Shown here piece by piece: positions 6,009-45,986 of a stretch of DNA of 64,000 bases. Positions within the stretch are counted from its first letter, which is position 1. Every line of letters begins with the position of its first letter. The notes under the pieces were generated by a model. It had not been told where the DNA came from. It made no database searches and was given only the letters and a program-made list of their open reading frames with translations. The stretch is from an uncultured Bacilli bacterium (GTDB lineage Bacteria > Bacillota_I > Bacilli_A > RF39 > UBA660): the NCBI GenBank assembly GCA_947629165.1, contig CANRCR010000001.1, positions 86,246 through 150,245 on the forward strand, read 5' to 3'. The position numbers and the translations under genes are program-made.

Positions 6009-8063
6009 ATGAAAAGAAAACGAAAGAAAAAGATACCATCTCGTTATGTTAAGTATCATTTTGAACGACGTTTTTTATTCGTTCAAATGCTTTTTCTTGG
6101 ACTTTTTTTACTTTTGAGTTTTTATCTTACGAAAATATTTGTTTTAGAAAAAGATTTTTATCAAGAAAAATTATTATCTTTGACAGATAAGATTGTTGAA
6201 GGAGAAAGTGCACCTCGTGGTAGAATATATGATCGCAATTATAAATTACTAGTAGATAATGTACAAGTTCCGACGATTTATTATCAGGATAGTAAGGATT
6301 ATAGTACTCAAGAAAAAATCAATCTTGCTTATCGATTAGGAGAGGTCATTGAGGTTCCTTTTGAAAAATTAGCATTAATTAATTTAAAAGAGTTTTTTTT
6401 AGCGGAGTATCCGAATGTTGGAAAAAGTAAAATCACAGAGGAAGAATGGAAAGCTTATGAAGAACGAAAATTATCTTCTCGCGATATTGAAAAATTAAAA
6501 ATCGAACGTATTACTTCCGACGATTTAGCAATTTATAATGATTCATCGAAGAAGGCGGCTTACTTTTATTATTATATGAATAAAGGCTATATTTATCAGA
6601 AAAAAACTTTAAAAACAAATGCTTCTGTAGAAGAGATTGCCTATCTTGCCGAACACAGTACGATGTTTGAAGGAATCAGTGTGGAACAAAACTGGGAAAG
6701 AGTTTATTATTACGGCGATACTTTTCGATCGATTTTAGGAACGGTTTCCAGTTCTTTTCAAGGATTACCGAGCGAGGAAGTAGCGATGTATCTTGAAAAA
6801 GGGTACGCCTTAAACGACCGCGTGGGGACTAGTTACTTAGAAAAGCAATACGAATCCTTACTTAAAGGAACCAAAGCGAAGTATCGTGTTACGAATAGTG
6901 ACGAGATGACGCTTATAGAAGAAGCCAAACGTGGAAAAGATATCGTGCTTACAATCGATATTGAATTACAGCAGGAAGTTGATCGCATTTTAAGTGAACA
7001 GTTAATCCGCGCTAAATCGGAGCCCAATACTGGTTACTTTAATCGCAGTTTTGTAGTTATTCAAGAACCGAATACCGGGGAGATTTTAGCAATGAGTGGG
7101 AAACAAGTTATAAAAGAGATGGACACTTGGGTAGTACGAGACTATACGCCGGGTATATTGACTTCTCCGATGACTCCTGGAAGTGTCGTCAAAGGGGCTA
7201 CCATGTTAGTAGGTTATAACACGGGTGTCCTTCAAATTGGAGAGGTCATGCAGGATGAATGTATTAAAATAGCGGGTACTCCTAAAAAATGTTCGCATGC
7301 TAATCTCGGCCGCATTAACGATATTATGGCACTTGCCCAATCTTCCAATGTTTATCAGTTTAAAATTGCGATGCGTGTTGCAGGAGCAACTTATCGTTAC
7401 AACCAACCTTTATATATTAATCCTGTCGCTTTTTCTATTTATCGTAAGACGTTAGGCGAGTTTGGATTAGGCGTAAAGACAGGAATCGATTTACCTGTTG
7501 AAAGTTTAGGTTATATCGGAACTAAAACGGATCCTGGGTTACTTTTAGATTTGTCGATGGGACAGTATGATACGTATACACCTATTCAATTATCGCAATA
7601 TATTACTACACTAGCGTCTAACGGGGTACGTTATCAACCACATCTTTTAAAAGAAGTTCATAGTTCTACTTCATCGAACGAATTAGGTGCATTAGAGCAA
7701 ACTTTTGTACCGGTTGTTTTAAATACGGTCACCACAGAAGAACGCTTTTTAAATCGTATCAAAGAAGGATTTCGAGCAGTGATGACGGTTGGTCTTGGAA
7801 AAGGAGTGATGGGAACGAGTCCCAATCCGGCCGGAAAAACGGGAACCAGTGAATCTTTTCTCGATACCGATGGAGATGGTGTTATCGATAGTGCATCGGT
7901 CAGTAACGCTTTCGTCGGGTTCGCCCCTTACGATCACCCTCGAATGACGATTACGGTTACTTCTCCCGATGTCGAAAAACCTTCTGGATATACTTATCAC
8001 AGTTATGTCAATCGTCGTATTGCCCGTGAAATATCGAGTCGTTTTTTTGAACTTTATCCTTAA
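6009..8063 (+). CDS. Class B penicillin-binding protein (transpeptidase, PBP2B/SpoVD-like)
   Basis: 684 aa. N-terminal membrane anchor. Transpeptidase motifs SVVK (SxxK), SSN and KTGT are all present in the correct order. Confidence 0.85.
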   Translation: MKRKRKKKIPSRYVKYHFERRFLFVQMLFLGLFLLLSFYLTKIFVLEKDFYQEKLLSLTDKIVEGESAPRGRIYDRNYKLLVDNVQVPTIYYQDSKDYSTQEKINLAYRLGEVIEVPFEKLALINLKEFFLAEYPNVGKSKITEEEWKAYEERKLSSRDIEKLKIERITSDDLAIYNDSSKKAAYFYYYMNKGYIYQKKTLKTNASVEEIAYLAEHSTMFEGISVEQNWERVYYYGDTFRSILGTVSSSFQGLPSEEVAMYLEKGYALNDRVGTSYLEKQYESLLKGTKAKYRVTNSDEMTLIEEAKRGKDIVLTIDIELQQEVDRILSEQLIRAKSEPNTGYFNRSFVVIQEPNTGEILAMSGKQVIKEMDTWVVRDYTPGILTSPMTPGSVVKGATMLVGYNTGVLQIGEVMQDECIKIAGTPKKCSHANLGRINDIMALAQSSNVYQFKIAMRVAGATYRYNQPLYINPVAFSIYRKTLGEFGLGVKTGIDLPVESLGYIGTKTDPGLLLDLSMGQYDTYTPIQLSQYITTLASNGVRYQPHLLKEVHSSTSSNELGALEQTFVPVVLNTVTTEERFLNRIKEGFRAVMTVGLGKGVMGTSPNPAGKTGTSESFLDTDGDGVIDSASVSNAFVGFAPYDHPRMTITVTSPDVEKPSGYTYHSYVNRRIAREISSRFFELYP

Positions 8064-8189: not shown

Positions 8190-8354
8190 ATGGCAAAAGT
8201 AGGAAATAGACAATTAAAAACACTTGTTTGTTCCGTTTGTAACAACGAAAATTATCGTACTGAAAAAAATGTTAGAAACACGACTGACCGTTTAACGCTC
8301 AATAAATATTGTCCTGTTTGCAAAAAACATACAGAACACAAGGAAAAGAAATAA
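8190..8354 (+). CDS. rpmG: 50S ribosomal protein L33
   Basis: 54-aa ORF, below the ORF-track cutoff: [54 protein letters not shown]. It has the CxxC...CxxC zinc ribbon, and the '(D/E)RLxLxKYCP' segment is typical of L33. Promoter TTGCAA-17-TATAAT and RBS gaggaggg upstream. Confidence 0.85.
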
Positions 8355-8383
8355 AATAGTATAGAAAGGGCGTGTAAGCCATG

Positions 8384-8941
8384 ATGATCAGTGTTAATGA
8401 TTTTAAAACAGGAATGACCATTATTTATGAAGATGCCATTTATCAAGTATTGGAATTCCAACATGTAAAACCTGGAAAAGGTGCTGCATTTGTAAAAGCA
8501 AAATTACGTAATTTAAGAACAGGTTCTATTATTGAAAAAACTTTTAATTCTTCTGTTCGTGTTGAACAGGCTAGAATTGAAAAAAGAGATATGCAATTTT
8601 TATATTCACAAGGCGATTCTTATTTCTTTATGAATATGGAAACTTACGATCAAGTTGAACTTACTGAAAAACAATTAGGTGATGAGATTAAGTTCTTAAA
8701 AGAAAATTTAATCGTTACTATTTCTTTCTACGAAGGAGAAGTTTTAGGACTTATTTTACCGGATAAAATTGAGATGAAGATCGTACATTCGGAACCTGCA
8801 GTAAAAGGAAATACTTCAAGTGGAGCGATGAAAGATGCGACGCTTGAAACTGGAATGGTTATTAAAGTTCCATTGTTTGTCGAAGAAGGAGAAACCGTTG
8901 TTATCTCTACTTCGGATGGAAAATATGTATCTCGTGCATAA
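8384..8941 (+). CDS. efp: Elongation factor P
   Basis: MISVNDFKTGMTI...KPGKGAAFVKAKLRNL matches EF-P, including the conserved Lys loop (PGKG). The start is chosen at the second Met. Confidence 0.9.
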   Translation: MISVNDFKTGMTIIYEDAIYQVLEFQHVKPGKGAAFVKAKLRNLRTGSIIEKTFNSSVRVEQARIEKRDMQFLYSQGDSYFFMNMETYDQVELTEKQLGDEIKFLKENLIVTISFYEGEVLGLILPDKIEMKIVHSEPAVKGNTSSGAMKDATLETGMVIKVPLFVEEGETVVISTSDGKYVSRA

Positions 8942-9030: not shown

Positions 9031-9540
9031 GTGATTAACAAGCAAAATTTGTGGTTCTTAACATTATTTAGTTTGATTTTAGTATTAAGTGTTTATTACA
9101 TTACGATGCCGAGTGAATTGCTTCTTACCAATAACAGTAATTACGATACGAATGTTTCTAGTGATTCGGATACCGATGTTGTTCAGATCGAAGAAAGCGA
9201 TTTACTAACGGCCATGCGTGTCAGTTTAGATGAAGAACGACTTGAGTTACAAAATACACTTCAGGAAACTTTAACATCTACTTCTTCTTCGACCGAGGAT
9301 AAGAATGAAGCTTATGAAAAATTAAGACATCTCGACGAAGTAAAAGGAAAAGAAGAGACACTCGAAAATAAAATAAAAACAAATTTTAAACTGGATAACT
9401 TTATTAAAATTGATGGTAGTGAAATTCAAGTAGTTGTTGTTGCACAAGAACATAGTAGTGAACTTGCGAATAACATTATGCGTAGCATACAAGAAGAGTT
9501 TCCAGAAAAAGTATATGTGACTGTAAAATTTGAAAAGTAA
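9031..9540 (+). CDS. spoIIIAH: Stage III sporulation protein AH-like (SpoIIIAH family)
   Basis: GTG start. The N-terminus MINKQNLWFLTLFSLILVLSVYYI closely parallels B. subtilis SpoIIIAH (…WLLTMLSLVVVLSVYYI…). Single TM segment followed by a YscJ/FliF-like domain. It sits directly downstream of efp, as the spoIIIA operon does in Bacillus. Confidence 0.65.
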   Translation: MINKQNLWFLTLFSLILVLSVYYITMPSELLLTNNSNYDTNVSSDSDTDVVQIEESDLLTAMRVSLDEERLELQNTLQETLTSTSSSTEDKNEAYEKLRHLDEVKGKEETLENKIKTNFKLDNFIKIDGSEIQVVVVAQEHSSELANNIMRSIQEEFPEKVYVTVKFEK

Positions 9541-9633
9541 AATAATTTAGGCAAAATTACTATGCTTTTACCCTTCGAACTCATAAAATAATATGAGTCT
9601 ATATCAAAATGTTTTAGGAGAAGGAGTGAAAGT

Positions 9634-9843
9634 GTGCGCAAAGGTATTTTAACGAAAAGAGAAAAAGAAGTATTTAATCTCTTGGTTTTAAATAAAACGA
9701 CAAAAGAAATTGCTTTTGATTTAGGTATCAGTGAGAAAACCGTTCGTAATCATATTTCGAATGCTATGCAAAAATTGGGCGTTAAAGGTAGGGCAGGAGC
9801 GGTTGTCGAATTGTTAAAACTAAATGAAATCAGTCTCTCGTAA
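9634..9843 (+). CDS. gerE: Sporulation transcription regulator GerE (LuxR/FixJ-type HTH)
   Basis: 69 aa. ...LLTKREKEVFNLLVLNKTTKEIAFDLGISEKTVRNHISNAMQKLGVKGRAGAVVELL is nearly identical across its length to B. subtilis GerE. GTG start behind RBS aggagaaggag. Confidence 0.85.
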   Translation: MRKGILTKREKEVFNLLVLNKTTKEIAFDLGISEKTVRNHISNAMQKLGVKGRAGAVVELLKLNEISLS

Positions 9844-9870
9844 GAAAGATATAAAAATCTTTCTTTTTTG
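9843..9870 (+). terminator. Rho-independent terminator after gerE
   Basis: Hairpin agaaagatataaaaatctttct followed by a T-run. Confidence 0.65.
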
Positions 9871-9914
9871 TTATTTTAAAAACTTTCATTTCATACAATT
9901 GATTAGGTGATAAC

Positions 9915-10859
9915 ATGTTAAAACAAAAGGCCTTACGTAAAATTTTAGTAACTACTTTTGCCGTTTTTATTTTGTTTGTACTTTATTTAATTCCGGATAT
10001 TCAACCTACGAATCGGTTAAATCCTGTCACGGAAGTAGAATATGTCGACGAATTAAATACCAATGTTGTCTATCTCTTAAGTAATGATCGTTATTTAGTA
10101 AAAGCGCATCTTTTGCTAGAGGGAAATGATACTTTAAGTAAAGCGAAAAGCATTGTAAAAACTTTAACGATTAATCAAAATAAAAATTTACCAAGTGGTT
10201 TTACAGGAATTATTCCTGAAAAAACAATTTTAGAGGAAGTTACATTTGATAAAGGAATTTTAACACTTAATTTTAATAAAGAACTTTTATCGATCGATGC
10301 TGATTTAGAAGAACGAATGGTGGAGGCACTCGTTTATAGTCTTACTTCTTTGGATGGCGTAGAAGGAATTACGATCCGTGTAGAAAACGAAGTTTTAGAA
10401 GCTTTGCCACATCGTAAAAAGCCCCTTTCTTCTATTCTTACTACTGATTTTGGAATTAATAAAGTGTACGAATTTTCTCAAAAAGACGATATTCATAAAG
10501 TTGTTGTTTACTATCTTTTAGAAAATGATGATACGTATTATGTTCCCGTAACGAAATATGTAAATGATAGTCGTGATAAGATTGAAATTATTATTGATAA
10601 CTTATCGAGTAGTTATATTTATCAACCTAATTTGACTTCTTTTTTGGATCGAGAAGCAAGTTTGTTAAATTATGAAATTTCGGATGGATTAATGATTTTG
10701 GAGTTTAATGATCATCTTTTTGATGGCAATCAAAAAGTGTTAGAAGAGGTACTTTATACCATTTCGTATTCTGTTTTTGATAACTATGATGTCAATGAAG
10801 TACTATTTCAAGTAGGAGAGGAATCGGTCTTTAAACAGTTACGCACGGAACTACCATAA
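9915..10859 (+). CDS. gerM: GerM-like sporulation/germination protein (two GerMN domains, N-terminal membrane anchor)
   Basis: N-terminal TM helix. There are two repeats with the GerMN pattern (VVYLL...; IPEKT.LEEVTFDKGILTLNF...VYSLTSLDGVEGITIRVENE; and a second copy VVVYYLLENDD...GLMILEFNDHLF...LYTISYSVFDNYDVNEVLFQV). Confidence 0.55.
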   Translation: MLKQKALRKILVTTFAVFILFVLYLIPDIQPTNRLNPVTEVEYVDELNTNVVYLLSNDRYLVKAHLLLEGNDTLSKAKSIVKTLTINQNKNLPSGFTGIIPEKTILEEVTFDKGILTLNFNKELLSIDADLEERMVEALVYSLTSLDGVEGITIRVENEVLEALPHRKKPLSSILTTDFGINKVYEFSQKDDIHKVVVYYLLENDDTYYVPVTKYVNDSRDKIEIIIDNLSSSYIYQPNLTSFLDREASLLNYEISDGLMILEFNDHLFDGNQKVLEEVLYTISYSVFDNYDVNEVLFQVGEESVFKQLRTELP

Positions 10860-11152: not shown

Positions 11153-11244
11153 TTTCTTGACGATTATTTGTCAATTCATTTTTACTTTTTTTATTATTTC
11201 GAATATAATAAAATTAAAGTTATAAAAATAGAAAGGAGTATTTA

Positions 11245-11385
11245 TAACTAGCGCTAGGACCAGGATGGTTGACGAGGTTAACAGTGGTCGAAAGATTCAG
11301 CGGATGCTGTTACGGATACTACGTTCGTTAGACTATTCAAAAAAGACAAAATTAAAATTGTAACAAAGGAATAGTTTAGTAGTAG
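11245..11385 (+). ncRNA. glmS ribozyme (GlcN6P-responsive self-cleaving riboswitch) in the glmS leader
   Basis: Leader contains AGCGCUAGGACCAGG...GACGAGG...CGGAUGC, which matches the conserved glmS ribozyme core blocks (AGCGCC.G..., GACGAGG, GGAUGCC). It is positioned directly 5' of glmS, as in Gram-positives. Confidence 0.65.
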
Positions 11386-11396
11386 GAGGTTATAAT

Positions 11397-13163
11397 ATGT
11401 GTGGTATTGTAGGATACCTAGGAAATAGAAAAGCAATTCCTGTAATTATGCAGGGGTTAAAGAGTTTGGAATATCGTGGTTACGATTCTTCTGGAATTGC
11501 GTACGTTCAAGATCAGATGATTCACGTACTAAAAAAAGAAGGAAAAATAGAAAATTTAGATACCCTGTTGGATTATGATACGGATACCTATTTAGGAATC
11601 GCCCATACAAGGTGGGCTACGCATGGGAAGGCAAACGATATTAATGCTCATCCTCATACTTCAGGAAAAATCACTTTAGTTCATAATGGAATTATTGAAA
11701 ATTATGCCCAATTAAAGAAAAAACTCATTGAAAAAGGAAAAACTTTTGTCAGTGAAACCGATACGGAAGTCGTTGCTTGTTTACTCGATACTCTTTATGA
11801 AGAAACCAAAGATTTACTTAAAGCAATTGCACTTTTATCTGAAAAGGTAATCGGTTCTTATGCGTTAAATATTCTTTGTGAAGATGAACTCGATACTTTG
11901 TATGCCGTTCGAAAAGATAGTCCTTTGATTGTTGGAAGGGGGAATCAGGAATTTATTTTAGCGAGTGATATTCCAGCTTTACTTCCTGTTACGAATCATT
12001 ATTATCTTTTAGATAATTATGAAATTGTTAAAATAACCAAAGAAGGGATTTCTTTCTATGATCAAAAGTTAAATAAAATTACGAAAGTAGAACAGGAATA
12101 TACGGGTGACTTGGAAGTTTCTTCTAAAAAAGGATACGACCACTTTATGTTAAAGGAAATCAATGAACAACCGGAAGTAATTAAAAACTTACTTGCAAAA
12201 TATGTTGTAGAAGATCATCTTCAAAATGTTTTCGATATCAAAAAATATCAAACCATTGAAATTGTTGCCTGTGGAAGTGCCTATCATGCAGGTTTAATTG
12301 GCAAGTATTATTTGGAAAATTTAGCATCGATTCCAACGCGTGTCACTTATTCTTCCGAATATCGTTATCAGAAGAATTTCTTTGATAAGAATAATTTAGT
12401 TATTGTAATTTCACAATCTGGAGAAACGGCGGACACGTTAGCTGCTTTGAAATTAGCCAAAGAGCATGGAATCGACACGTTAGCGATTGTCAATGTGGTT
12501 TCTTCTTCGATTGCCCGTGAAGCAGATCATGTATTTTATACGGATGCCGGTATTGAAGTTGCGGTAGCGACTACCAAAGCTTATTTTGCTCAAGTAGTAT
12601 CGTTATTACTTCTTGCCGTGGCAACCTTAAAAGAACAAGCATCGATTCTTGCTTCATTGAAACAACTACCTTCGCTTATTTCGAAATATATTCATCATTT
12701 TGATTATGAAACACTTGCGAAACGTTTTATAGGTCGGGAACATATTTTCTATTTAGGAAGAGGCGTTGACTTTTCACTCGCAATGGAAGGAAGTTTAAAA
12801 TTAAAAGAAATTTCTTATATCCATAGTGAAGCTTATCCTGCTGGAGAATTAAAACATGGAACGATTTCACTAGTGGACGAAGAAACTGGAATTATTGCGG
12901 TTGTACTCGATCATACCATTAAAGAAAAGACGATTAGTAACTTGAAAGAAGTTGCTTCAAGGGGTGCTCAAGTGGTTGCTATTACGAACGATGCTACCGA
13001 TGAATTTTGTGATGAAAAAATACTTCTCGAAGATTATGATGCAGTGATTAATCCGTTAGTTGCGATTATTCCTATGCAATTATTAGCTTATCATGTTGCC
13101 AAGTTAAAAAAATGTGATATTGATAAACCACGCAATCTTGCGAAATCGGTTACCGTGGAATAA
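11397..13163 (+). CDS. glmS: Glutamine--fructose-6-phosphate aminotransferase
   Basis: N-terminal MCGIVGY (Ntn Cys). Two SIS domains. 588 aa. RBS taggaggtt. Confidence 0.9.
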   Translation: MCGIVGYLGNRKAIPVIMQGLKSLEYRGYDSSGIAYVQDQMIHVLKKEGKIENLDTLLDYDTDTYLGIAHTRWATHGKANDINAHPHTSGKITLVHNGIIENYAQLKKKLIEKGKTFVSETDTEVVACLLDTLYEETKDLLKAIALLSEKVIGSYALNILCEDELDTLYAVRKDSPLIVGRGNQEFILASDIPALLPVTNHYYLLDNYEIVKITKEGISFYDQKLNKITKVEQEYTGDLEVSSKKGYDHFMLKEINEQPEVIKNLLAKYVVEDHLQNVFDIKKYQTIEIVACGSAYHAGLIGKYYLENLASIPTRVTYSSEYRYQKNFFDKNNLVIVISQSGETADTLAALKLAKEHGIDTLAIVNVVSSSIAREADHVFYTDAGIEVAVATTKAYFAQVVSLLLLAVATLKEQASILASLKQLPSLISKYIHHFDYETLAKRFIGREHIFYLGRGVDFSLAMEGSLKLKEISYIHSEAYPAGELKHGTISLVDEETGIIAVVLDHTIKEKTISNLKEVASRGAQVVAITNDATDEFCDEKILLEDYDAVINPLVAIIPMQLLAYHVAKLKKCDIDKPRNLAKSVTVE

Positions 13164-13824: not shown

Positions 13825-15912
13825 ATGAAACATTACGAATGTGTTCGACAAGATGGAACGAAAGATTGTGGAATTGCTTCTTTACTTACTATTGTAAAAA
13901 CGTATGGTGGCTCCGTTTCGAAAGAGTATTTACGCACACTTACTAGGACAGGGAAGAATGGAGTGAATGCCTATTACTTACTCGAAGCAGGAAAAACATT
14001 AGGTTTTATGGCACAAGGAGTAGAAGCAGATTTTCGTACTTTTTCGAATCAAAATTTACCTTGTATTGCGCATATTACCGTTAATGAAAGTTATCAACAT
14101 TTTGTCGTCATTCATGCTATTCAAAAGGAAAAAGAATATCTTGTGGTAGCAGATCCAGCCGTTGGTATTCGAACGATTTCTTTTGCTGAATTCGACCGAT
14201 TATCTACTGGAAAATATTTGCTTTTTACTTTAACGAAACCCTTATTACAACAACAAAAGAGTCCATCTACTAAAAAGATTATTAACCTCACTTTAAAAAA
14301 CCATTATAAACTCTTGATTTTGATTTTCATATTTTCCTTTATTTATCTTTTTTTAGAGTTATTGACTTCTTTTGCATTTCAACTATTTCTTGAAGAAGGA
14401 ATGATTGGTTCCATCAAGCAAAATTTATTACTCGCTTTTGTTACTTTTTTAGGATTTACTTTTTTTCTTGAAGTGTTTCAATATCTTCGAAGAGTTTTTG
14501 TTTTTTACCTTTCTAATCATATCGATTTCGTACTTTTTAAACAACTCATCGAACATCTTTTTTCACTTCCGTATCTTTATTTTAAAAATCGCCCAACAGG
14601 AGAAGTTTTAGCGCGTCTTTCCGATCGACAGCAATTACAAGAAGGAATCACCCAATTCTTTTTATCTTTTTGTTTTGACGCCTTGGCCTTTTTATTTTTG
14701 TTTTTCTTTTTAAGTTGGTTTTTAAATTCGTTTTTTTGGGTACTTATCATCGGTTTTGTATTATTCGCTTTTGTATCCTATTATTTATTTCGACCAATCA
14801 AAGAAAAAATAGCTATTTGGACTAAAGAACGTGGAATGCATTTTTCTATGTTAACCGAGTCTCTTCGAGGAATTAGTTCCTTACAACATCTTGATCTTAC
14901 TACTTCTCATAGTCACTCTTTAATCTATGCGTATCGAAAGATACTAGGAGAACAAAATATTTTACAGAAGGATTTATCTCGTTTATTCGTATTTCGTGAA
15001 TTCGTTCAAAAAATATTATTACTCATCTATCTCTATTGGGGTGGTTTACAAGTCGTTCAAGGAACTTTATCTTTTGGTCGTTTTTTTGTTTGTTATACGT
15101 TTATTCATTATTTTATTGATCATTTTTCAAATTTACTTTTCTTTTTTGAAAATTATCAATCGATGGGGATTGTTATCGATCGACTCGATGAATTATTGCA
15201 GTGTCCTTCTCAAGAATTCCTATTTGAAGTAGGTGCCTCCCTAAAGAAATGGGAGCAAGGTATATCGATTCGAAACTTATCGTATTCCTATATTCCTCAT
15301 GACTTTGTTATTCGAAATTTTTCACTCGAAATAAAACCAGGTATGCGCCTTTTAATCTATGGAGAAAGTGGTAGTGGCAAAAGTACGTTGGCTAAACTGC
15401 TATTACGTTATTTTGAAGTTGCTCCTCATACCATTTATATCGACAATACGGATCTATCTGATTTTAATCTCTTACAATTACGGCAACAAATTTCTTATCT
15501 TTCTCAAGAAGAATTTCTTTTTACAGATAGTGTTTATCAAAATGTAGTACTGTATCGGGATGTTTCGTACGATGCTTTTTTAAAAGTGGCTAGGCTCGTC
15601 CGACTTGATTTTATTAAAGATAAAAGTAGTCTAGGATATCATTACTTACTGGAAGAAGATGGATTTAATTTAAGTGGTGGAGAAAGGCAACGTATTTTAT
15701 TAGCTCGAGCTTTATTAAAAGAGGCACAATTATATATTTTTGATGAAAGTTTTAGTGAAATTGATGTTCCTACTGAAAGAAAAATTTTAAAAGATCTTTT
15801 TCATACTTATCCGAATAAGACTTTTCTTATTATTTCTCATCGGCTATCCAATCAAGATTTATATGACCGAAAAATTTGTTTCCAAAAGGAGGGGATTCGT
15901 CGTGCAGTATGA
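13825..15912 (+). CDS. Bacteriocin-processing ABC transporter with N-terminal C39 peptidase domain (ComA/LagD/SunT type; ATP-binding plus permease)
   Basis: N-terminal C39 domain (QDGTKDCGIASL... catalytic Cys; H in HFVVIHA; D in ADPAVG). Six-helix TM region. ABC ATPase with Walker A GESGSGKST, signature LSGGERQRILLARAL, Walker B LYIFDES and H-loop ISHRLS. Confidence 0.85.
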   Translation: MKHYECVRQDGTKDCGIASLLTIVKTYGGSVSKEYLRTLTRTGKNGVNAYYLLEAGKTLGFMAQGVEADFRTFSNQNLPCIAHITVNESYQHFVVIHAIQKEKEYLVVADPAVGIRTISFAEFDRLSTGKYLLFTLTKPLLQQQKSPSTKKIINLTLKNHYKLLILIFIFSFIYLFLELLTSFAFQLFLEEGMIGSIKQNLLLAFVTFLGFTFFLEVFQYLRRVFVFYLSNHIDFVLFKQLIEHLFSLPYLYFKNRPTGEVLARLSDRQQLQEGITQFFLSFCFDALAFLFLFFFLSWFLNSFFWVLIIGFVLFAFVSYYLFRPIKEKIAIWTKERGMHFSMLTESLRGISSLQHLDLTTSHSHSLIYAYRKILGEQNILQKDLSRLFVFREFVQKILLLIYLYWGGLQVVQGTLSFGRFFVCYTFIHYFIDHFSNLLFFFENYQSMGIVIDRLDELLQCPSQEFLFEVGASLKKWEQGISIRNLSYSYIPHDFVIRNFSLEIKPGMRLLIYGESGSGKSTLAKLLLRYFEVAPHTIYIDNTDLSDFNLLQLRQQISYLSQEEFLFTDSVYQNVVLYRDVSYDAFLKVARLVRLDFIKDKSSLGYHYLLEEDGFNLSGGERQRILLARALLKEAQLYIFDESFSEIDVPTERKILKDLFHTYPNKTFLIISHRLSNQDLYDRKICFQKEGIRRAV

Positions 15913-18185: not shown

Positions 18186-18446
18186 TTGATAGGTGAGTTT
18201 ATGTTAAAACAAGTTAAAAATTATTGTCTTGATTCCACCTTTCAATTTCATTATCAAAACGGGCAATTAGATGTCATCAATTACCTTGAACTTGTGGTGC
18301 TCGAGGCGAGTCGTATTTCATTGCGATGTGATATGGGACTTTTTATCGTTAAAGGGGAAGATTTAACGATTCAAAAATTACTCGATCAAGAGATACTTAT
18401 CTCCGGTCAAATTCATACGATTGAAATCGAGGAATCTTATGCTTGA
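18186..18446 (+). CDS. yqfC: Sporulation protein YqfC
   Basis: 86-aa protein directly upstream of yqfD, with YqfC-like size and position. Confidence 0.6.
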   Translation: MIGEFMLKQVKNYCLDSTFQFHYQNGQLDVINYLELVVLEASRISLRCDMGLFIVKGEDLTIQKLLDQEILISGQIHTIEIEESYA

Positions 18447-19605
18447 GAATCGTTATCTAGTTAAAATTGAGGGAAAAGATCCGCATCGTTTTTTGTTAAA
18501 CTTAATTAAAATGAATTTTCAATTTTATCGGATAAAAGAAAAATCCTCCAGTTTAGAATTATTACTTAACGAAGCAAACTACCAACGTTTAATGGAAATG
18601 AAAACGATCTATCAGATCACTTTAAAACGGATTTATGGACCTAAAGCGCTTTGGCAACAAATTTGGAATAAGCGTATTTTTGGGGGCTCCTTTTTGCTTG
18701 GATGTTTAGTCTTTTTTCTTTTGACACATATCATTTTTAGTGTCGAAGTAATTCATACAAAAAAAGTTATTCGCGATATGTTATACGAGGAACTTGCTCA
18801 ATATGGCATCACGCGATTTCATTTTTGTGTTTCATTTGAACAGAAAGAAAAGATTCGGTCCGAAATATTGGCGAAGCATAAAGATATCCTCGAGTGGATG
18901 GAAATCGAACGAATAGGAACCAAGTATGTTGTTCGAGTCGAAGAGCGAATGTTAAATGATCCTACCGAGACACCTACCGTTCGCGATATTGTTGCTCGAA
19001 AAGATGGAATCATTACACGTATTGAAGCTTCTCAAGGAGAAATCGTCACTAAAAAAGATCAATATGTTCGAAAAGGAGATCTTTTAATTACGGGCGTAAT
19101 TCATAATAAAGAAGAGGCGCAAGCTTATGTGATGGCAAAAGGAAACGTATATGCTGAGACCTGGTATAAAGTTACCGTTTCTATGCCACTTCATTATCAT
19201 GAAGAAAAAACAACGGGTAAAAAGACTCGATTGTTACAAGTAAATTTTTTAAATCATACTTTTTCATTGTTTGATTTTGCCCATTATAGAAATAAAAAAT
19301 CAACCGTCACCAATCTATTAAAAAATCCTTTATTTCCACTTTCTTTTGATTATGTTGTCGAACAGGAAATGGAGGTGATTGACGAAAATTATACGCCGGA
19401 AGAAGCTACTCAAAAAGCAAATGAAATGGCGGCTTCAAAAGTGCTCGAACAGTTAAATGTCAATGGTCGTATCCTCCAGCAAAAAGATTTGAAAATTACG
19501 CAAGAAGATAGTAAAATAGTAATAGAAGTATTCTTGAAGGTGGAAGAGGATATTACCGATTTTAGACCAATCGTTCTTCCTAATCAAGAGTCGAGCGAGG
19601 AGTAG
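18439..19605 (+). CDS. yqfD: Sporulation protein YqfD (stage IV sporulation-like)
   Basis: About 390 aa, MLENRYLVKIEGKDPHRFLNL..., central TM segment. The yqfC-yqfD pair is syntenic with Bacillus. The start is taken at the ATG at 18439, overlapping yqfC. Confidence 0.7.
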   Translation: MLENRYLVKIEGKDPHRFLLNLIKMNFQFYRIKEKSSSLELLLNEANYQRLMEMKTIYQITLKRIYGPKALWQQIWNKRIFGGSFLLGCLVFFLLTHIIFSVEVIHTKKVIRDMLYEELAQYGITRFHFCVSFEQKEKIRSEILAKHKDILEWMEIERIGTKYVVRVEERMLNDPTETPTVRDIVARKDGIITRIEASQGEIVTKKDQYVRKGDLLITGVIHNKEEAQAYVMAKGNVYAETWYKVTVSMPLHYHEEKTTGKKTRLLQVNFLNHTFSLFDFAHYRNKKSTVTNLLKNPLFPLSFDYVVEQEMEVIDENYTPEEATQKANEMAASKVLEQLNVNGRILQQKDLKITQEDSKIVIEVFLKVEEDITDFRPIVLPNQESSEE

Positions 19606-33730: not shown

Positions 33731-34417
33731 ATGCGAAAAGAATTTGAACGATTTGAAAAATTAATAGGAACGGAATCACTTTTAAATCTTTCTCGTAAAA
33801 CCGTTTGTATCGTCGGTTTGGGAGGGGTTGGAGGTTACGTTCTTGAAGCCTTGGCACGAAGTGGTATCACGTCTTTTGTGTTAGTAGATTTTGATGTTGT
33901 CGATAGGACCAATATCAACCGACAAATTATTGCTTTACAGTCGACTATCGGACAAAAGAAAATCGAGGCTTGGAAAAAGCGGTTACTGGATATTAATCCC
34001 GAAATTCGTGTCATTACTTATGACTTTTTCTATCAGGATACTTATGAAGCGACACTTTTTCAAAATAAAATCGACTTTTTAGTCGATGCTTGTGATTCGA
34101 TTCCTGCTAAAGAGAATTTAATACAGGCTTGTCTTACGCGAAAGATTCCTTTTATTTCCAGTATGGGAACCGGGAAGAGGTTAGATCCTAGTAAATTGTA
34201 TATTACCGATTTGACCAAGACTTCTTACGATCCGATTGCACGTATTTTAAGAAAATGGGCAAAAGATCAAGGGATAAAAGCTAAAATACCGGTTTTAACT
34301 TCCACGGAAATTCCTCGTAAAAGTGAAGGGACGACCGTTTCTTCGTGTGCTTTTGTTCCATCGAGTGCCGGGTTACTTATCGCTTCCTATGTCGTATCTC
34401 AACTACAAAAAAAATAG
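33731..34417 (+). CDS. ThiF/MoeB-family E1-like adenylyltransferase (TcdA/CsdL-like tRNA t6A dehydratase candidate)
   Basis: Nucleotide-binding motif VCIVGLGGVGGYVLEALARSGI and DFDVVDRTNINRQ. Confidence 0.7.
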   Translation: MRKEFERFEKLIGTESLLNLSRKTVCIVGLGGVGGYVLEALARSGITSFVLVDFDVVDRTNINRQIIALQSTIGQKKIEAWKKRLLDINPEIRVITYDFFYQDTYEATLFQNKIDFLVDACDSIPAKENLIQACLTRKIPFISSMGTGKRLDPSKLYITDLTKTSYDPIARILRKWAKDQGIKAKIPVLTSTEIPRKSEGTTVSSCAFVPSSAGLLIASYVVSQLQKK

Positions 34418-34443
34418 AGTTCCACGGGAACTCTTTTTCTTTT

Positions 34444-35061
34444 TTATAATTTTCTATATAATCCTACGACTTTTCCTAAAACCGTTACGTTTGCTAAGAT
34501 AATTGGTGCCATCGTATCATTTTCTGGTTGAAGGCGAAAGTGATCTTTTTCTTTATAAAAAGTTTTTACTGTCACTTCGTTTTGATCAGTCATCGCTACT
34601 ACGGTATCTCCGTTATTTGCCGTCGACTGTCTTTGAACAATTAAGATATCACCATCGTAAATACCGACGTTAATCATAGATTCACCACTTACTTTAAGGG
34701 TAAAAACTTCTTTTTTATTCGGAATTAAATTGATTGGTAGGGCAAAGAACTCATCGGGAACTTCGATTGCTTCAATCGGATTTCCTGCAGTTACTTTACC
34801 AAGTAAAGGTACTTGCACCACATCTTCTTTCGTTTCTTCGTATTCGTTTGGCACTAATAGTTCGATGGTTCTATTTTTGGATGCATCTTTTTTAATGTAT
34901 CCTTTTTCTTCGATTTTTTTAAGATGAAAATGGATGGTAGCGGGTGACTTTAAATCAAGCATAGCACCGATTTCTCGAACGGTAGGTGGGAAGCCTTTTT
35001 TAGCAATAAATTCTTTTACAGCTTTTAATATATCACTTTGACGTTTAGTTAGTTTTTCCAT
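34444..35061 (-). CDS. lexA: LexA repressor
   Basis: Start chosen at the Met behind a perfect RBS (rev-comp ggaggag). Winged HTH plus S24 peptidase with Ser/Lys dyad (GESM...K). Cheo-like boxes in its upstream region. Confidence 0.85.
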   Translation of the reverse strand: MEKLTKRQSDILKAVKEFIAKKGFPPTVREIGAMLDLKSPATIHFHLKKIEEKGYIKKDASKNRTIELLVPNEYEETKEDVVQVPLLGKVTAGNPIEAIEVPDEFFALPINLIPNKKEVFTLKVSGESMINVGIYDGDILIVQRQSTANNGDTVVAMTDQNEVTVKTFYKEKDHFRLQPENDTMAPIILANVTVLGKVVGLYRKL

Positions 35062-35136
35062 TTTATCTCCTCCTTCTATTTCTACTTTACCATAAGATGT
35101 GTCAATTGTCAAACAAATGTTCAAAAAACTATTGAC

Positions 35137-35150
35137 CGAACAGTTGTTCG
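35137..35150. promoter_or_regulatory. LexA (Cheo) box CGAACAGTTGTTCG inside the spacer of a TTGACC-17-TATAAT promoter
   Basis: Exact match to the Gram-positive SOS box CGAACRNRYGTTCG. It is flanked by a -35 at 35132-35137 and a -10 at 35155-35160. A second degenerate box AAACAAATGTTC lies at 35111-35123, toward lexA. Confidence 0.75.
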
Positions 35151-35189
35151 ATAATATAATGGAAGTATAAGAAAGAGAGGTAATGAAAA

Positions 35190-35339
35190 ATGAAATTGAA
35201 AAGACAAGTTAAAATGGTTTTAGTAGGATATCTTGTGGTCGCGCTTATTTCTGTGATTGCAATGAACCGAATCGAAAAATTAGAAAGTATGGAAGATGTT
35301 GCTACTTGTAATGAAAAAGTAGCACTTAATGTACAATAG
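35190..35339 (+). CDS. Small SOS-regulated membrane protein (49 aa), candidate cell-division inhibitor (YneA/SosA analog)
   Basis: MKLKRQVKMVLVGYLVVALISVIAMNRIEKLESMEDVATCNEKVALNVQ. Single TM segment, RBS gagagg, transcribed divergently from lexA and downstream of the Cheo box. Below the ORF-track cutoff. Confidence 0.5.
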   Translation: MKLKRQVKMVLVGYLVVALISVIAMNRIEKLESMEDVATCNEKVALNVQ

Positions 35340-35350
35340 TGGAGGCGTTT

Positions 35351-35734
35351 ATGCGTAGAGAATGTTATTATGTATCTGTTCTTACGATGGACCCTTCGAC
35401 TGGAAGAGTTCTTTTTATTTATCCTTCTAAGCGAAAACGATGTACTTTGCCTCAACTGAAAATTCTTTCCAATCAAGTGGCACCTTCGTATTTGAAAGAA
35501 AAAATTAAACGATGTACCGGATATGATATTTCTTTTTTAGGTCCTGTCCAAGAAAGCATTTTGGATTCTTACTTTAAAAAGAAGATTCCACATATTCAAT
35601 ATGTCGCTTATGTAACCGGTGGTTTTCCTTTAGATAATCAAAATAATTTTGTATGGCTAAACATTCATGAAATGGTCGAACGAAAGATTTCTCCAACGAT
35701 TATTGCAAGTGCTCGTTATTTCGGATGTTATTGA
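35351..35734 (+). CDS. Hypothetical protein (127 aa) in the LexA-regulated operon
   Basis: ATG at 35351 behind ggagg. No family recognised. Confidence 0.45.
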   Translation: MRRECYYVSVLTMDPSTGRVLFIYPSKRKRCTLPQLKILSNQVAPSYLKEKIKRCTGYDISFLGPVQESILDSYFKKKIPHIQYVAYVTGGFPLDNQNNFVWLNIHEMVERKISPTIIASARYFGCY

Positions 35735-35790
35735 AGTTTTTTATTTTGTCTCTCATGGAAACATGATATAATACCAATAGGTGATACTCA

Positions 35791-38436
35791 ATGAAAAAGG
35801 TAATTTTAATCGATGGAAATAACATCTTATTTCGAAGTTATTATGCCACCGCCTACAGTGGTAGCAATTTAAAAAATTCGAAAGGGTTTCCAACGAATGC
35901 ACTTTATGGATTTATCAATATGCTCAACAAAATTTTGAATGAAGAAAAACCGGAATACGTTATGATTGCTTTTGATAAAGGAAAAACTTTTCGCCATGAA
36001 AAGTATCCGGATTATAAAGGAGGAAGAGGTGCTACTCCCGAAGAGTTATTGCTGCAATTCCCTGTTGCCAAGCAGTTGACGGAAGCGATGGGAATGACTT
36101 ATGTCGAGACGGATTTGTACGAGGCCGATGATATTATTGGAACGTATGCTAAACGAATTGAAGAGGATGATCAATTTATTGGAACGATTATCAGTAGTGA
36201 TAAAGATTTATTACAATTAATATCGGATGAAATCGATGTAAAACTTTTAAAACAGGTCGGTTTTGTTCGAATGAATGTAGCTTCGTTTCGGGAAACCTAT
36301 GGCGTGGATCCTATTCGAATGATTGATTTAAAAGCCTTAATGGGAGACTCGAGTGATAATATTCCCGGGGTCAAAGGAATCGGTGAAAAGACCGCTATTT
36401 CACTTTTAAAAACGTATGACAATGTCGATAATTTATACGATCATATCGATGAGATAAAAGGAAAAGTACAAGAAAAATTAATTCTCGGAAAAGATTCTTG
36501 TTACATGAGTAAAGATTTAGCAACGATATATCGCGAAGTACCTATCGATACGGATTTAGAAAAAATTGCTTATCGTGGTATTGACCCTTTAAAGTACATT
36601 GCTTTATTAGAAGATTTGGAGTTTTATTCTCTAATTAAAAAAATTGATATTCCAAAAGATTTGATTCAGGAAGAAGAAAAGAAGCCGGAAGAGGATTCTC
36701 TTTCCGTTCAAATGATAAATGATAAAAAGGCGTTAGAAGCATTAAAATTAGATGAACCTTTTGCTTTTTATCTTGAAATATTAGGAAATAATTATCATCG
36801 TGATAAGAAGTTGGGATTTGGAATATATAATTCGAAAGTTCAAGCTTTTATTCCTTTTTCAGTACTTGCTAGTTGTCCTCATTTTTTTGATACTGCGGTC
36901 GATAAATATACGTATGATTTGAAAAAGATATTAGTTCCTTTTCTATATGCCAATTATACGATTAATGGAAATGTTTTCGATACGATGATTGCTGCTTATC
37001 TTTTAAATAAAAATATCAAAGATGATGTTTCTTATTTAGCTAATCAGATGCATTATTCGATTCCTTTTTATGAAGAAGTGTTTGGAACAAGTAATGTCAA
37101 TAGCCGCTTAAAAGAACCGGAATTAGAAGTGGTTGCTCAATTAGCCGTTCAAAAAGCTAAATTTATTTATGAGACACATGATTCTTTCGTCGAAGAATTA
37201 AAACAAGAAGAAGCCTATCCGCTTTTTGAAAAAATTGAGATGCCTTTAACTTATGTTTTGGCAGATATGGAGTATACCGGTATTTTAGTTGATCAACCTT
37301 ATTTGAAAACGATGAGTGAAGAATTAAAACAACAGATGGATGCTATCGAAAAAGAAATATTTACGCTAGCGGGATCCGAATTTAATTTGATGAGTCCTAA
37401 ACAATTGGGAGATGTTCTTTTTGACCAGTTAAAAATACCGTATCCTAAAAAGATTAATCAAGGACAACGTTATTTGACCAATAAAGAAATATTAGAAAAG
37501 TTAGCTCCTTCTTATCCGATTGTACAAAAGGTGCTCGAATACCGAACGGTTTCAAAGCTTTATACGACTTATGCCATCGGTTTGATGAATGAAATTCATG
37601 CCGATGGACGTATTCATACGATTTATACGCAGACGCTTACTCGAACAGGAAGACTTTCTTCTATTAATCCTAACTTACAAAATATTCCAGTACGGCTCGA
37701 ATATGGTCGTCTTATTCGTAAGGCCTTTATTCCATCGCCGGGTTGTTTCTTATTATCGAGCGACTATTCCCAAATCGAGTTACGGATGTTTGCCCATATG
37801 GCCCATGCAACTAATTTAATCGAAGCATTCCGAGAAGGAAAAGACATTCATATGAAGACTGCCATGGATATCTTTCATGTCCGTGAAGACCAAGTTACAA
37901 AGGATATGCGTCGTAGTGCTAAGGCTGTCAATTTTGGAATCTTGTATGGAATTAGCAGTTTCGGTTTAAGTGAAGATTTAGGTATCGATATTGCTAGTGC
38001 GAAAAATTTTATTAACGATTATTTGAATACGTATCCAGGAATTCGTGAATATATGAATGAAGTAATCGAGAAAGCCCACAAGTTGGGTTACGTTAAAACG
38101 ATTATGAATCGTAAGCGAACGATCGAAGAACTTCATAATAAGAACTATATGATTCGTAGTCAAGGAGAACGTATGGCATTAAATACACCGGTGCAAGGAA
38201 GTGCTGCCGACTTGTTAAAGAAAGCGATGATTGAAATTTTCGACGCGTTTAACGAAAAAGGTTTAAAAAGTAAAATGCTTTTACAAGTTCATGACGAATT
38301 AGTCTTTGATGTCGTACAAGAAGAAGCGGATGTAGTAAAACAAATTGTACAAGATATCATGGAAAATACGTATCAATTAGATGTTCCTCTCAAAGTTGAT
38401 ATTGAGACTGGAAGTAACTGGTACGAAGCGAAGTAG
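35791..38436 (+). CDS. polA: DNA polymerase I
   Basis: 881 aa. 5'-3' exonuclease N-terminal domain, 3'-5' exonuclease-like domain, and polymerase motifs (RRSAKAVNFGILYG; QVHDELVF). Confidence 0.95.
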   Translation: MKKVILIDGNNILFRSYYATAYSGSNLKNSKGFPTNALYGFINMLNKILNEEKPEYVMIAFDKGKTFRHEKYPDYKGGRGATPEELLLQFPVAKQLTEAMGMTYVETDLYEADDIIGTYAKRIEEDDQFIGTIISSDKDLLQLISDEIDVKLLKQVGFVRMNVASFRETYGVDPIRMIDLKALMGDSSDNIPGVKGIGEKTAISLLKTYDNVDNLYDHIDEIKGKVQEKLILGKDSCYMSKDLATIYREVPIDTDLEKIAYRGIDPLKYIALLEDLEFYSLIKKIDIPKDLIQEEEKKPEEDSLSVQMINDKKALEALKLDEPFAFYLEILGNNYHRDKKLGFGIYNSKVQAFIPFSVLASCPHFFDTAVDKYTYDLKKILVPFLYANYTINGNVFDTMIAAYLLNKNIKDDVSYLANQMHYSIPFYEEVFGTSNVNSRLKEPELEVVAQLAVQKAKFIYETHDSFVEELKQEEAYPLFEKIEMPLTYVLADMEYTGILVDQPYLKTMSEELKQQMDAIEKEIFTLAGSEFNLMSPKQLGDVLFDQLKIPYPKKINQGQRYLTNKEILEKLAPSYPIVQKVLEYRTVSKLYTTYAIGLMNEIHADGRIHTIYTQTLTRTGRLSSINPNLQNIPVRLEYGRLIRKAFIPSPGCFLLSSDYSQIELRMFAHMAHATNLIEAFREGKDIHMKTAMDIFHVREDQVTKDMRRSAKAVNFGILYGISSFGLSEDLGIDIASAKNFINDYLNTYPGIREYMNEVIEKAHKLGYVKTIMNRKRTIEELHNKNYMIRSQGERMALNTPVQGSAADLLKKAMIEIFDAFNEKGLKSKMLLQVHDELVFDVVQEEADVVKQIVQDIMENTYQLDVPLKVDIETGSNWYEAK

Positions 38437-45275: not shown

Positions 45276-45986
45276 ATGCAACGTTATTTTGTTACGAAGA
45301 AGAAAGATGATATTTTTTCTTTTTCGACAGAAGATAATCATCATATTAAAAATGTTATGCGCATGGAAATAGGGGAATGTGTCGAAATTGTCTATGAAAA
45401 TAATCTTTACCGGGCACATATTATTTCATTAGAACCGGTGCAAGCTCAAATTGCGGAAGAAGTACCTTCGAAGGATGCTATGAAGCCCTATATTACGCTT
45501 GCACAAGCACTGGTCAAAGAACAAAAGATGGATTTTATCTTGCAAAAGACGACGGAATTAGGAATCGATGAGATTATTCCTTTGACTACTGTGCGATCGG
45601 TGGTTAAAACTAATGATAAGACCTGTCAAAAAGTTGTTCGATGGCAACGTATTGTAAAAGAAGCAAGCGAACAATCGAAGCGGACAAGCATTCCCAAAGT
45701 TAATCTACCGAAATCGGTAAAAGAGGTCGCTTTACTCGATTACGATTTGAAAATTCTTTGTACTGTAAATGAGTTGTCAAAAAATTTAAATAAGGTATTA
45801 TCAAACCTTTCTAAGCGTGCTAGAATATTATTTGTAATAGGGGCGGAAGGTGGCTTTACAAAGGAAGAAGAGCAATATTTTCTTGACCACGGTTTTGTCT
45901 CTTGTTCGTTAGGTTCACTTGTTTTAAGAACCGAAACCGCATCCCTTTATGTAATGAGTGTTATCCAATTTTTATTGTCGAGGTGA
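45276..45986 (+). CDS. rsmE: 16S rRNA (uracil1498-N3)-methyltransferase RsmE
   Basis: MQRYFV... start and SPOUT-class fold. Start taken at the ATG at 45276 behind aggtga. Confidence 0.75.
   Translation: MQRYFVTKKKDDIFSFSTEDNHHIKNVMRMEIGECVEIVYENNLYRAHIISLEPVQAQIAEEVPSKDAMKPYITLAQALVKEQKMDFILQKTTELGIDEIIPLTTVRSVVKTNDKTCQKVVRWQRIVKEASEQSKRTSIPKVNLPKSVKEVALLDYDLKILCTVNELSKNLNKVLSNLSKRARILFVIGAEGGFTKEEEQYFLDHGFVSCSLGSLVLRTETASLYVMSVIQFLLSR

Follow-up and report, generated by a model that had tools for sequence, protein, structure and literature searches.

A Small Membrane-Protein Gene Divergent from lexA and Predicted to Be LexA-Controlled in Uncultured Gut Bacilli

Introduction

The locus described here raises the question of what an uncultured gut bacterium encodes opposite lexA, namely whether the very short open reading frame that shares an intergenic region with this gene is genuine and under SOS control, and, if so, what its product might do. 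The Gram-positive SOS division inhibitors commonly display lexA adjacency, a single transmembrane segment, and an extracellular C-terminus, and they share little sequence (PMC6851548). Indeed, every one of the lexA-divergent small transmembrane proteins thus far characterized from the Firmicutes and the Actinobacteria is a division inhibitor (PMC6851548). One of these, SosA, lacks a LysM domain and is most strongly conserved just after its transmembrane segment (Bojer et al. 2019, PMC6851548). Researchers are currently asking how the FtsW/PBP synthase of the septum can be turned off by one helix (PMC13396833). The transmembrane segment of YneA binds transmembrane helix 7 of FtsW, and AlphaFold 3 models place the transmembrane segments of SosA, ChiZ, and SidA against the same FtsW helix, with SidA positioned on its opposite side (PMC13396833).

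In the following account the window refers to the whole stretch of DNA that was analyzed, 64 kb in length. A first-pass annotation had singled out a LexA box in the promoter of a 49-residue membrane protein and had proposed that this protein is a strong positional analogue of YneA and SosA and possibly a new family member. The analysis below was directed at that proposal.

Results

The gene divergent from the small open reading frame had been taken to be lexA, and this assignment is secure. It is located on the minus strand from 34444 to 35061, and its product of 205 amino acid residues displays both a LexA DNA-binding domain (Pfam LexA_DNA_bind, 7.8e-22) and a Peptidase_S24 domain (1.5e-32). 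The top match in the PDB is the LexA repressor 3k2z (2e-36), and the closest solved structures are LexA repressors. A hairpin resembling a bidirectional terminator (34416-34434) lies between lexA and a convergent gene of the ThiF family. The predicted lexA promoter extends over 35084-35112 on the minus strand and is composed of a -35 element, TTGACA (35112-35107), a spacer of 17 bp, and a TG-extended -10 element, TAAAGT (35089-35084).

On the other side of the intergenic region is a second promoter, which reads on the plus strand from 35132 to 35160 toward the small open reading frame. Its -35 hexamer, TTGACC (35132-35137), and its -10 hexamer, TATAAT (35155-35160), account for 11 of 12 matches, and it constitutes the best promoter-like site of the scanned region. 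The 17-bp spacer between the two hexamers harbors a perfect Cheo/LexA box, CGAACAGTTGTTCG, at 35137-35150. An exact Gram-positive SOS operator had been claimed for this spacer, and it is there; the coordinates of the box, the promoter, and the reading frame are all correct. The pattern CGAACN4GTTCG occurs only once in the 64-kb window, whereas 0.04 occurrences are expected on the basis of dinucleotide-preserving shuffles, and this one copy falls within the 126-bp lexA/small-gene intergenic region. Chance can therefore be excluded for the perfect box. A second LexA box, CAAACAAATGTTCA, is located at 35110-35123 on the lexA side, where it overlaps the lexA -35 element.

A weight matrix for LexA boxes was built from other genomes, with the window's own sites left out. 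When the 64 kb were scanned with it, the perfect box and the lexA-proximal box ranked first and second, at 20.4 and 17.8 bits, respectively. The maxima in shuffled sequence averaged 14.4 bits and reached 19.0 bits at the highest. Two additional sites were considered and set aside as lying within the shuffle range. The first of these, CAAACAAGTGTTTT (8217-8230, minus strand, 15.1 bits), is found upstream of efp (8381-8941) and is probably due to chance; for the second, at 45627-45640 (14.5 bits), no claim is made. No box was observed in the weight-matrix scan of the window upstream of uvrC, mutL, fpg, or the AP endonuclease gene.

The small gene itself occupies positions 35190-35339 on the plus strand. 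Its ATG at 35190 is preceded, at a distance of 8 nt, by the Shine-Dalgarno sequence AGAGAGGT (35174-35181), which is exposed in a predicted mRNA leader of only ~23 nt. A search of Rfam revealed no known RNA element in the intergenic region. The predicted protein of 49 residues is bitopic, with a basic N-terminus, a transmembrane segment extending from about residue 9 to residue 25, a juxtamembrane RIEKLE motif, and a tail of 24 residues.

For comparison of this arrangement across species, a scan with the LexA protein, limited to one genome per species, provided 80 loci in which LexA is 70-83% identical. Nearly all of these are from metagenome-assembled genomes labelled as uncultured Bacilli, Tenericutes, or Erysipelotrichaceae, and the hosts include the rabbit, ruminant, chicken, mouse, and human gut. 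All upstream regions were oriented as in the window.

An open reading frame of 46-58 codons is found at the equivalent site in 65 of the 80 loci, one member (L067) being truncated to 38 codons. Without exception, the 65 loci with the reading frame have a promoter consisting of TTGACA, a LexA-like box in the spacer, and a -10 element. The form typical of the clade is TTGACA-CGAACAATTGT[T/A][T/C]G-...-TATAAT or TATACT, with the box held in a fixed register within the spacer. When the promoter boxes (n=66) were compared with the Bacillus subtilis consensus, 2 were found to be perfect, and 26, 31, and 7 to have one, two, and three mismatches, respectively. Positions A3, A4, and T11 vary little or not at all. 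Of the two half-sites, it is the right one that varies. Thus the box was correctly described as perfect in the window, but with 2 of 66 perfect copies it is the exception in a clade whose consensus is the degenerate form given above. Note that a search for the pattern GAACN4GTTC would have suggested that the promoter box is not conserved, for the pattern is nearly absent from the relatives; a reading of the sequences themselves revealed the degenerate box in its conserved position.

The lexA-proximal box behaves differently. Its core, AAACAAATGTTC (35111-35122), is not significant when treated as a plain string, in that the window contains 19 one-mismatch 12-mers against 24.6 expected. The pattern GTCAAAC-N4-NTT, however, is retained in 81 of 81 loci at a distance of 42-50 nt from the lexA start codon and is the best-conserved element of the compared loci. 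The first bases of the box are those of the lexA -35 element, and the corresponding TGTCAA of the lexA promoter is invariant across the related loci. This box had been referred to as a degenerate second site. A true box on the lexA side does exist, but the label is misleading for the most conserved element of the region, non-significant as it is as a string. It is the predicted operator through which lexA is autoregulated, in a variant form.

Are the box and the reading frame connected? In seven loci polA is directly divergent from lexA, and these loci possess neither the small open reading frame nor the boxed promoter, although they retain the polA promoter and the lexA box. Given that box and reading frame are absent together, the box serves the small gene rather than polA. 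On this comparative evidence the two form one unit.

A few loci depart from the common arrangement. In L011 the small gene upstream of lexA has decayed: its start codon reads ATA rather than ATG and part of its interior is deleted. The boxed promoter before it appears intact. In L079 a boxed promoter, TTGACACGAATAAATGTTCG, drives a different single-pass open reading frame of 43 residues (MEILKNKATILLIVMILGVSYIGG...) beside lexA. The family HMM described below does not match this reading frame. The neighbors in L079 differ as well, with no polA nearby and an adjoining gene that by eye is transketolase-like (GSGHPG motif). Four loci (L018, L021, L052, and L058) have, divergent from lexA, a gene for a protein of 266-291 residues to which Pfam assigns no credible family, and this may be another SOS gene. 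The upstream sequence was read for two of these loci, L018 and L052, and in both there is a tandem pair of LexA-like boxes on the lexA side, CAAACGTTTGTTT and GTCAAAC..TGTT.

With respect to the reading frame itself, members of the family differ from one another at ~70% of their residues, and still the frame is open in 65 of 80 loci. From the off-frame stop frequency of 0.12 in the same DNA, a frame of 49 codons would be open by chance with a probability of ~0.002 per locus. A Shine-Dalgarno-like site precedes the frame in 66 of 66 family members, and an HMM of the family gives exactly one match per locus, at the small-gene site only. In addition, gene callers do call the 49-residue reading frame on sibling ENA contigs, where the order of lexA, the 49-residue frame, and a 127-residue frame is the same. 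As judged by its conservation, the small open reading frame is a real gene, and the contention that a small single-pass protein is encoded here is upheld by the open frames, the ribosome-binding sites, and the one-per-locus HMM matches.

No family was found for the 49-residue protein in Pfam (E<=0.1), nor was a LysM domain, and NCBIfam contains no credible family for any of the 65 members. A profile search of 5.8 billion proteins returned 179 relatives, and the only name given to any of them is "hypothetical protein [Bacilli bacterium]". When 1.84 billion representatives were searched exhaustively with the profile, 164 clusters were recovered, with listed lengths of 38-84 residues, the sole exception being a weak match to a repeat protein of 1,353 residues (E 1.2e-4). 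There was no link to a larger family among the 1.84 billion representatives, and the hits inspected all belong to the same family. None of the 150 matches listed has a length of 77 residues, the size of SosA. The longer matches (72-84 residues) were considered as bridges to proteins of that size and rejected; those inspected arise from mis-called starts or frameshifted ends. No SosA-like protein of 77 residues surfaced in the family profile search, and the comparison with SosA itself covered its C-terminal 16 residues. By these searches, the family is compact, self-contained, and previously unnamed.

The family members are built in a uniform manner. A short, basic N-terminus (mean net charge +2.65) leads into a single hydrophobic stretch of 17-21 residues, which is followed by a slightly acidic tail of ~23 residues (net charge -0.7). 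The positive-inside rule predicts an N-in/C-out topology. Tyr 14 and Arg 27 are invariant, and Ile 10, Ile 13, and Leu 31 are conserved in more than 90% of the members. Val 28 and Glu 29 are strongly conserved as well, and position 32 is either an aspartate or a glutamate, such that the segment immediately C-terminal to the membrane anchor reads R27-[IV]-E-x-L31-[DE]. The periodicity of conservation is highest at 100 degrees with a nearly equal value at 80 degrees (8.9 versus 8.0), which is at most a hint that conservation follows a single side of the helix, from the inner half of the transmembrane segment to the juxtamembrane residues. When provided with the family alignment, AlphaFold 2 predicts one continuous helix, with pLDDT values of 94 and 83 over residues 11-30. 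The distal part of the tail is poorly conserved and is predicted with a pLDDT of about 55, and the extreme C-terminus displays alternating hydrophobic residues, [IV]-x-L-x-[IL].

Downstream of the small gene lies polA, which encodes DNA polymerase I (35791-38436, plus strand), as identified by Pfam and by synteny in ~60 loci. In most loci polA begins 29-96 nt past the stop codon of the small open reading frame, and this gap is filled by the promoter of polA itself. In the window that promoter has the extended -10 element TGATATAAT (35764-35772, plus strand). A TGnTATAAT or TATACT element ~20 nt before the ATG is present in nearly all related loci, including those that lack the small gene, and the AGGTGAT Shine-Dalgarno sequence of polA (window region 35764-35785) is conserved across the clade. 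From this synteny, polA is the ancestral downstream neighbor of the small gene. A scan of the plus strand from 35339 to 35900 revealed no terminator. Since the gap of 29-96 nt is taken up by the polA promoter and Shine-Dalgarno sequence, leaving no room for a terminator, transcripts controlled by LexA should run into polA, and the SOS transcript probably does read into this gene.

In the window a further open reading frame of 127 codons (35351-35734, plus strand) intervenes, separated from the small gene by 11 nt and preceded at 7 nt by GGAGG, an arrangement of close translational coupling. The first-pass annotation had listed this hypothetical gene as the next one downstream. The reading frame exists, but it is confined to the species, and in ~60 relatives polA comes next. 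It is absent from all 80 related loci, and its database relatives amount to one sibling that is 98% identical. Neither Pfam nor a sequence search of the PDB produced a match at E<=10. A degenerate Nudix protein, or some other known protein, was considered and rejected on the same negative searches, the only PHROG match having an E-value of 0.29. The single-sequence AlphaFold 2 model has a pLDDT of 39 and is unusable. On its phylogenetic distribution, this frame is a species-specific orphan inserted between the small gene and polA. Two of the related loci (L012 and L013) have a gene of ~1.1 kb for a multi-pass membrane protein inserted at the small-gene/polA junction. These arrangements suggest that the junction is a recurrent insertion spot.

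Finally, the gene content of the window bears on the type of cell in which the small protein would act. A class B PBP is encoded at 6009-8063, and sporulation genes for SpoIIIAH, a GerM-like protein, and YqfD are found at 9031-10859 and 18421-19605. Several public records label the lineage as "Tenericutes" or "Mycoplasmatota", yet these genes show that the organism evidently has a wall and probably forms spores. With wall and sporulation genes present, a septal peptidoglycan machine exists to be inhibited. FtsW is not encoded within the 64-kb window. Elsewhere in the window, glmS (11397-13163) is immediately preceded by a glmS ribozyme (11239-11385; Rfam RF00234, 64.7 bits), and a C39-peptidase ABC transporter of the bacteriocin or peptide exporter type is encoded at 13825-15912.

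Discussion

The regulation of the small gene by the SOS response is well supported by its operator, its promoter, and their conservation, and SOS control of a real membrane protein is very probable indeed. We infer LexA binding, induction, membrane topology, and read-through from the sequence features described above, and the following scheme is proposed. LexA would bind to two operators in the 126-bp intergenic region. On the lexA side it would occupy the weaker, variant operator over the lexA -35 element, and thereby provide autoregulation. On the other side the consensus box fills the spacer between the -35 and -10 elements, such that bound LexA would exclude RNA polymerase. Upon DNA damage, RecA-stimulated self-cleavage of LexA would free the divergent promoter, and the mRNA with its leader of ~23 nt would be translated to yield a 49-residue membrane protein in the N-in/C-out orientation. 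This regulatory half of the scheme is what the known biology of LexA, combined with the conserved layout of the locus, leads one to expect. Given that no terminator follows the small gene, the same transcript probably continues into polA-fpg, in this species through the 127-residue reading frame, and would thus supply a damage-inducible component of DNA polymerase I. The functional half is based on analogy. The conserved face, from Ile 10, Ile 13, and Tyr 14 to R27-[IV]-E-x-L31-[DE], would most likely dock onto a partner in the FtsW/class B PBP complex, and docking at this septal peptidoglycan synthase would bring about a transient block in division, as is the case for SosA and YneA. A helix conserved along one side would suit the mode of FtsW binding described for those proteins. 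That the small protein is a division inhibitor, with this target included, is the reading we prefer, at a probability of roughly 0.55.

The analogy is closest for SosA. Both proteins are encoded divergently from lexA under a LexA operator, have one N-terminal transmembrane segment and an extracellular C-terminus (predicted in the case of the small protein), and lack a LysM domain. In both, conservation is strongest directly C-terminal to the transmembrane segment and weaker at a hydrophobic extreme C-terminus, a feature that is analogous and does not by itself prove homology. The C-terminal 16 residues of SosA, as translated from primers, end in ...KVFALIN, and the small-protein family ends in [IV]-x-L-x-[IL]-x. 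The two differ in length, 46-58 residues versus 77, with extracellular portions of ~23 and ~47 residues, respectively. They differ also in setting, for the small gene belongs to a lineage of uncultured, spore-forming gut Bacilli and is located directly upstream of polA.

Like the small protein, YneA from B. subtilis and Listeria and ChiZ from Mycobacterium tuberculosis are lexA-divergent, LexA-repressed, single-pass N-in/C-out proteins, the repression and topology being predicted for the family described here. YneA and ChiZ are defined by a LysM domain, which is absent from the family. YneA, a protein of about 105 residues, requires its C-terminal LysM peptidoglycan-binding domain for activity, whereas the 49-residue protein contains no LysM domain and its tail is too short to accommodate one. 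SidA (29 residues) and DidA (71 residues) from Caulobacter crescentus are of a comparable size class. DNA damage induces both of these very small membrane proteins, which block late division by binding to FtsW or FtsN. Unlike the gene considered here, those for SidA and DidA reside in a Gram-negative host and are not adjacent to lexA, the sequences show no similarity to the family, and DidA is SOS-independent.

The proposal that YneA and SosA have a positional analogue in the small protein is accordingly well founded with regard to synteny and architecture, both of which are as described for those proteins (PMC6851548). The suggestion that it might be a new member of a YneA/SosA family fares less well. 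It may represent a new family of the same functional kind by analogy, but it has no LysM domain and no match in Pfam or NCBIfam, and nothing in the searches connected it with SosA. At most, it can be called a new sequence family of the kind to which the lexA-linked small SOS membrane proteins YneA, SosA, ChiZ, and DivS belong.

The main rival to a division inhibitor is an SOS-induced membrane toxin of the TisB/DinQ type, which would lower the proton-motive force and lead to dormancy or persistence while leaving the divisome untouched. E. coli tisB and dinQ encode small hydrophobic peptides (~30 residues) under LexA control, and this reading would call for what is seen here, a promoter with a LexA box that precedes a mostly hydrophobic peptide of just 49 residues without a recognizable domain. 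As a rule, however, the mRNA of a type I toxin begins with a long, structured leader and is paired with its own antisense RNA, and the E. coli peptides, which depolarize the membrane, conform to this pattern. At the locus described here the leader is ~23 nt in length and unstructured, with a strong, exposed Shine-Dalgarno sequence, and an antisense RNA gene has no room, given lexA on one side and the polA promoter within 29-96 nt on the other. Neither an antisense RNA nor a long leader was found at the locus, although this is a weak test in that a novel RNA is possible. Moreover, the transmembrane segment has no ladder of charged or polar residues, and conservation on one face together with an extracellular juxtamembrane motif suggests a specific partner and not general damage to the membrane. 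The precedent likewise points away from a toxin, for the characterized lexA-divergent small transmembrane proteins are division inhibitors without exception (PMC6851548). On balance a toxin appears unlikely.

Another view is that the protein is SOS-regulated and resides in the membrane but has a different role, tied to polA or to repair, for example as a tether or as a regulator of a protease, a transporter, or sporulation, and does not inhibit division. Synteny with polA is nearly universal in the clade and the two genes are probably co-transcribed, and in a sporulating organism DNA damage could gate further processes at the envelope. The boxed promoter and the small open reading frame are gained and lost together, however, while polA keeps a promoter of its own. 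In L079, furthermore, a 43-residue transmembrane reading frame lies behind a boxed promoter at lexA with no polA nearby, which indicates that the link is to lexA rather than to polA. We know of no precedent for such a role and consider it likewise unlikely.

A third alternative is very unlikely, namely that the hydrophobic segment serves as a signal peptide whose cleavage releases a C-terminal peptide of ~22 residues from the cell as a damage-induced signal or antimicrobial. The lysine-rich n-region, hydrophobic core, and polar tail do resemble a Sec signal, but the hydrophobic stretch of 17-21 residues has the length of an anchor, and the residues ahead of the invariant arginine form no consistent small-x-small cleavage motif. 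The best-conserved residues include Ile 10, Ile 13, and Tyr 14 within the transmembrane segment, which would not be expected of a disposable signal. Lastly, although AT-rich DNA abounds in short reading frames and promoter-like hexamers (8 promoter-like sites in 1.6 kb versus 5.1 expected), the notion that box and reading frame are chance features of such an intergenic region is already refuted by the comparative data, with 0.04 perfect boxes expected per window and the reading frame, Shine-Dalgarno sequence, promoter, and box conserved together in 65 independent genomes.

Within the preferred reading of a division inhibitor, a more specific model can be offered tentatively, and it may well prove incorrect in one or more of its parts. 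The protein could be a minimal Gram-positive SOS inhibitor, in which a transmembrane helix and the six-residue R-[IV]-E-x-L-[DE] motif silence FtsW/class B PBP without the need for a LysM domain or a long ectodomain, and whose transcript also raises the level of DNA polymerase I. The arrangement of the small gene and polA does suggest an SOS-inducible component of DNA polymerase I expression; to our knowledge, the SOS regulon of B. subtilis includes no such component. If the model is true, damage would switch on a division pause and gap-filling repair jointly, and would do so throughout a large clade of uncultured gut spore-formers.

The small membrane proteins of SOS checkpoints are hard to find by homology, and each is seemingly lineage-specific. 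The present family, with its ~164 clusters at 50% identity that are all annotated as "hypothetical" or left uncalled, comes from an abundant group of uncultured gut Bacilli. If its members are division inhibitors, their small size and the conserved residues Ile 10, Ile 13, Tyr 14, Arg 27, and Leu 31 would make them convenient tools for studying the inactivation of FtsW/PBP by one helix.
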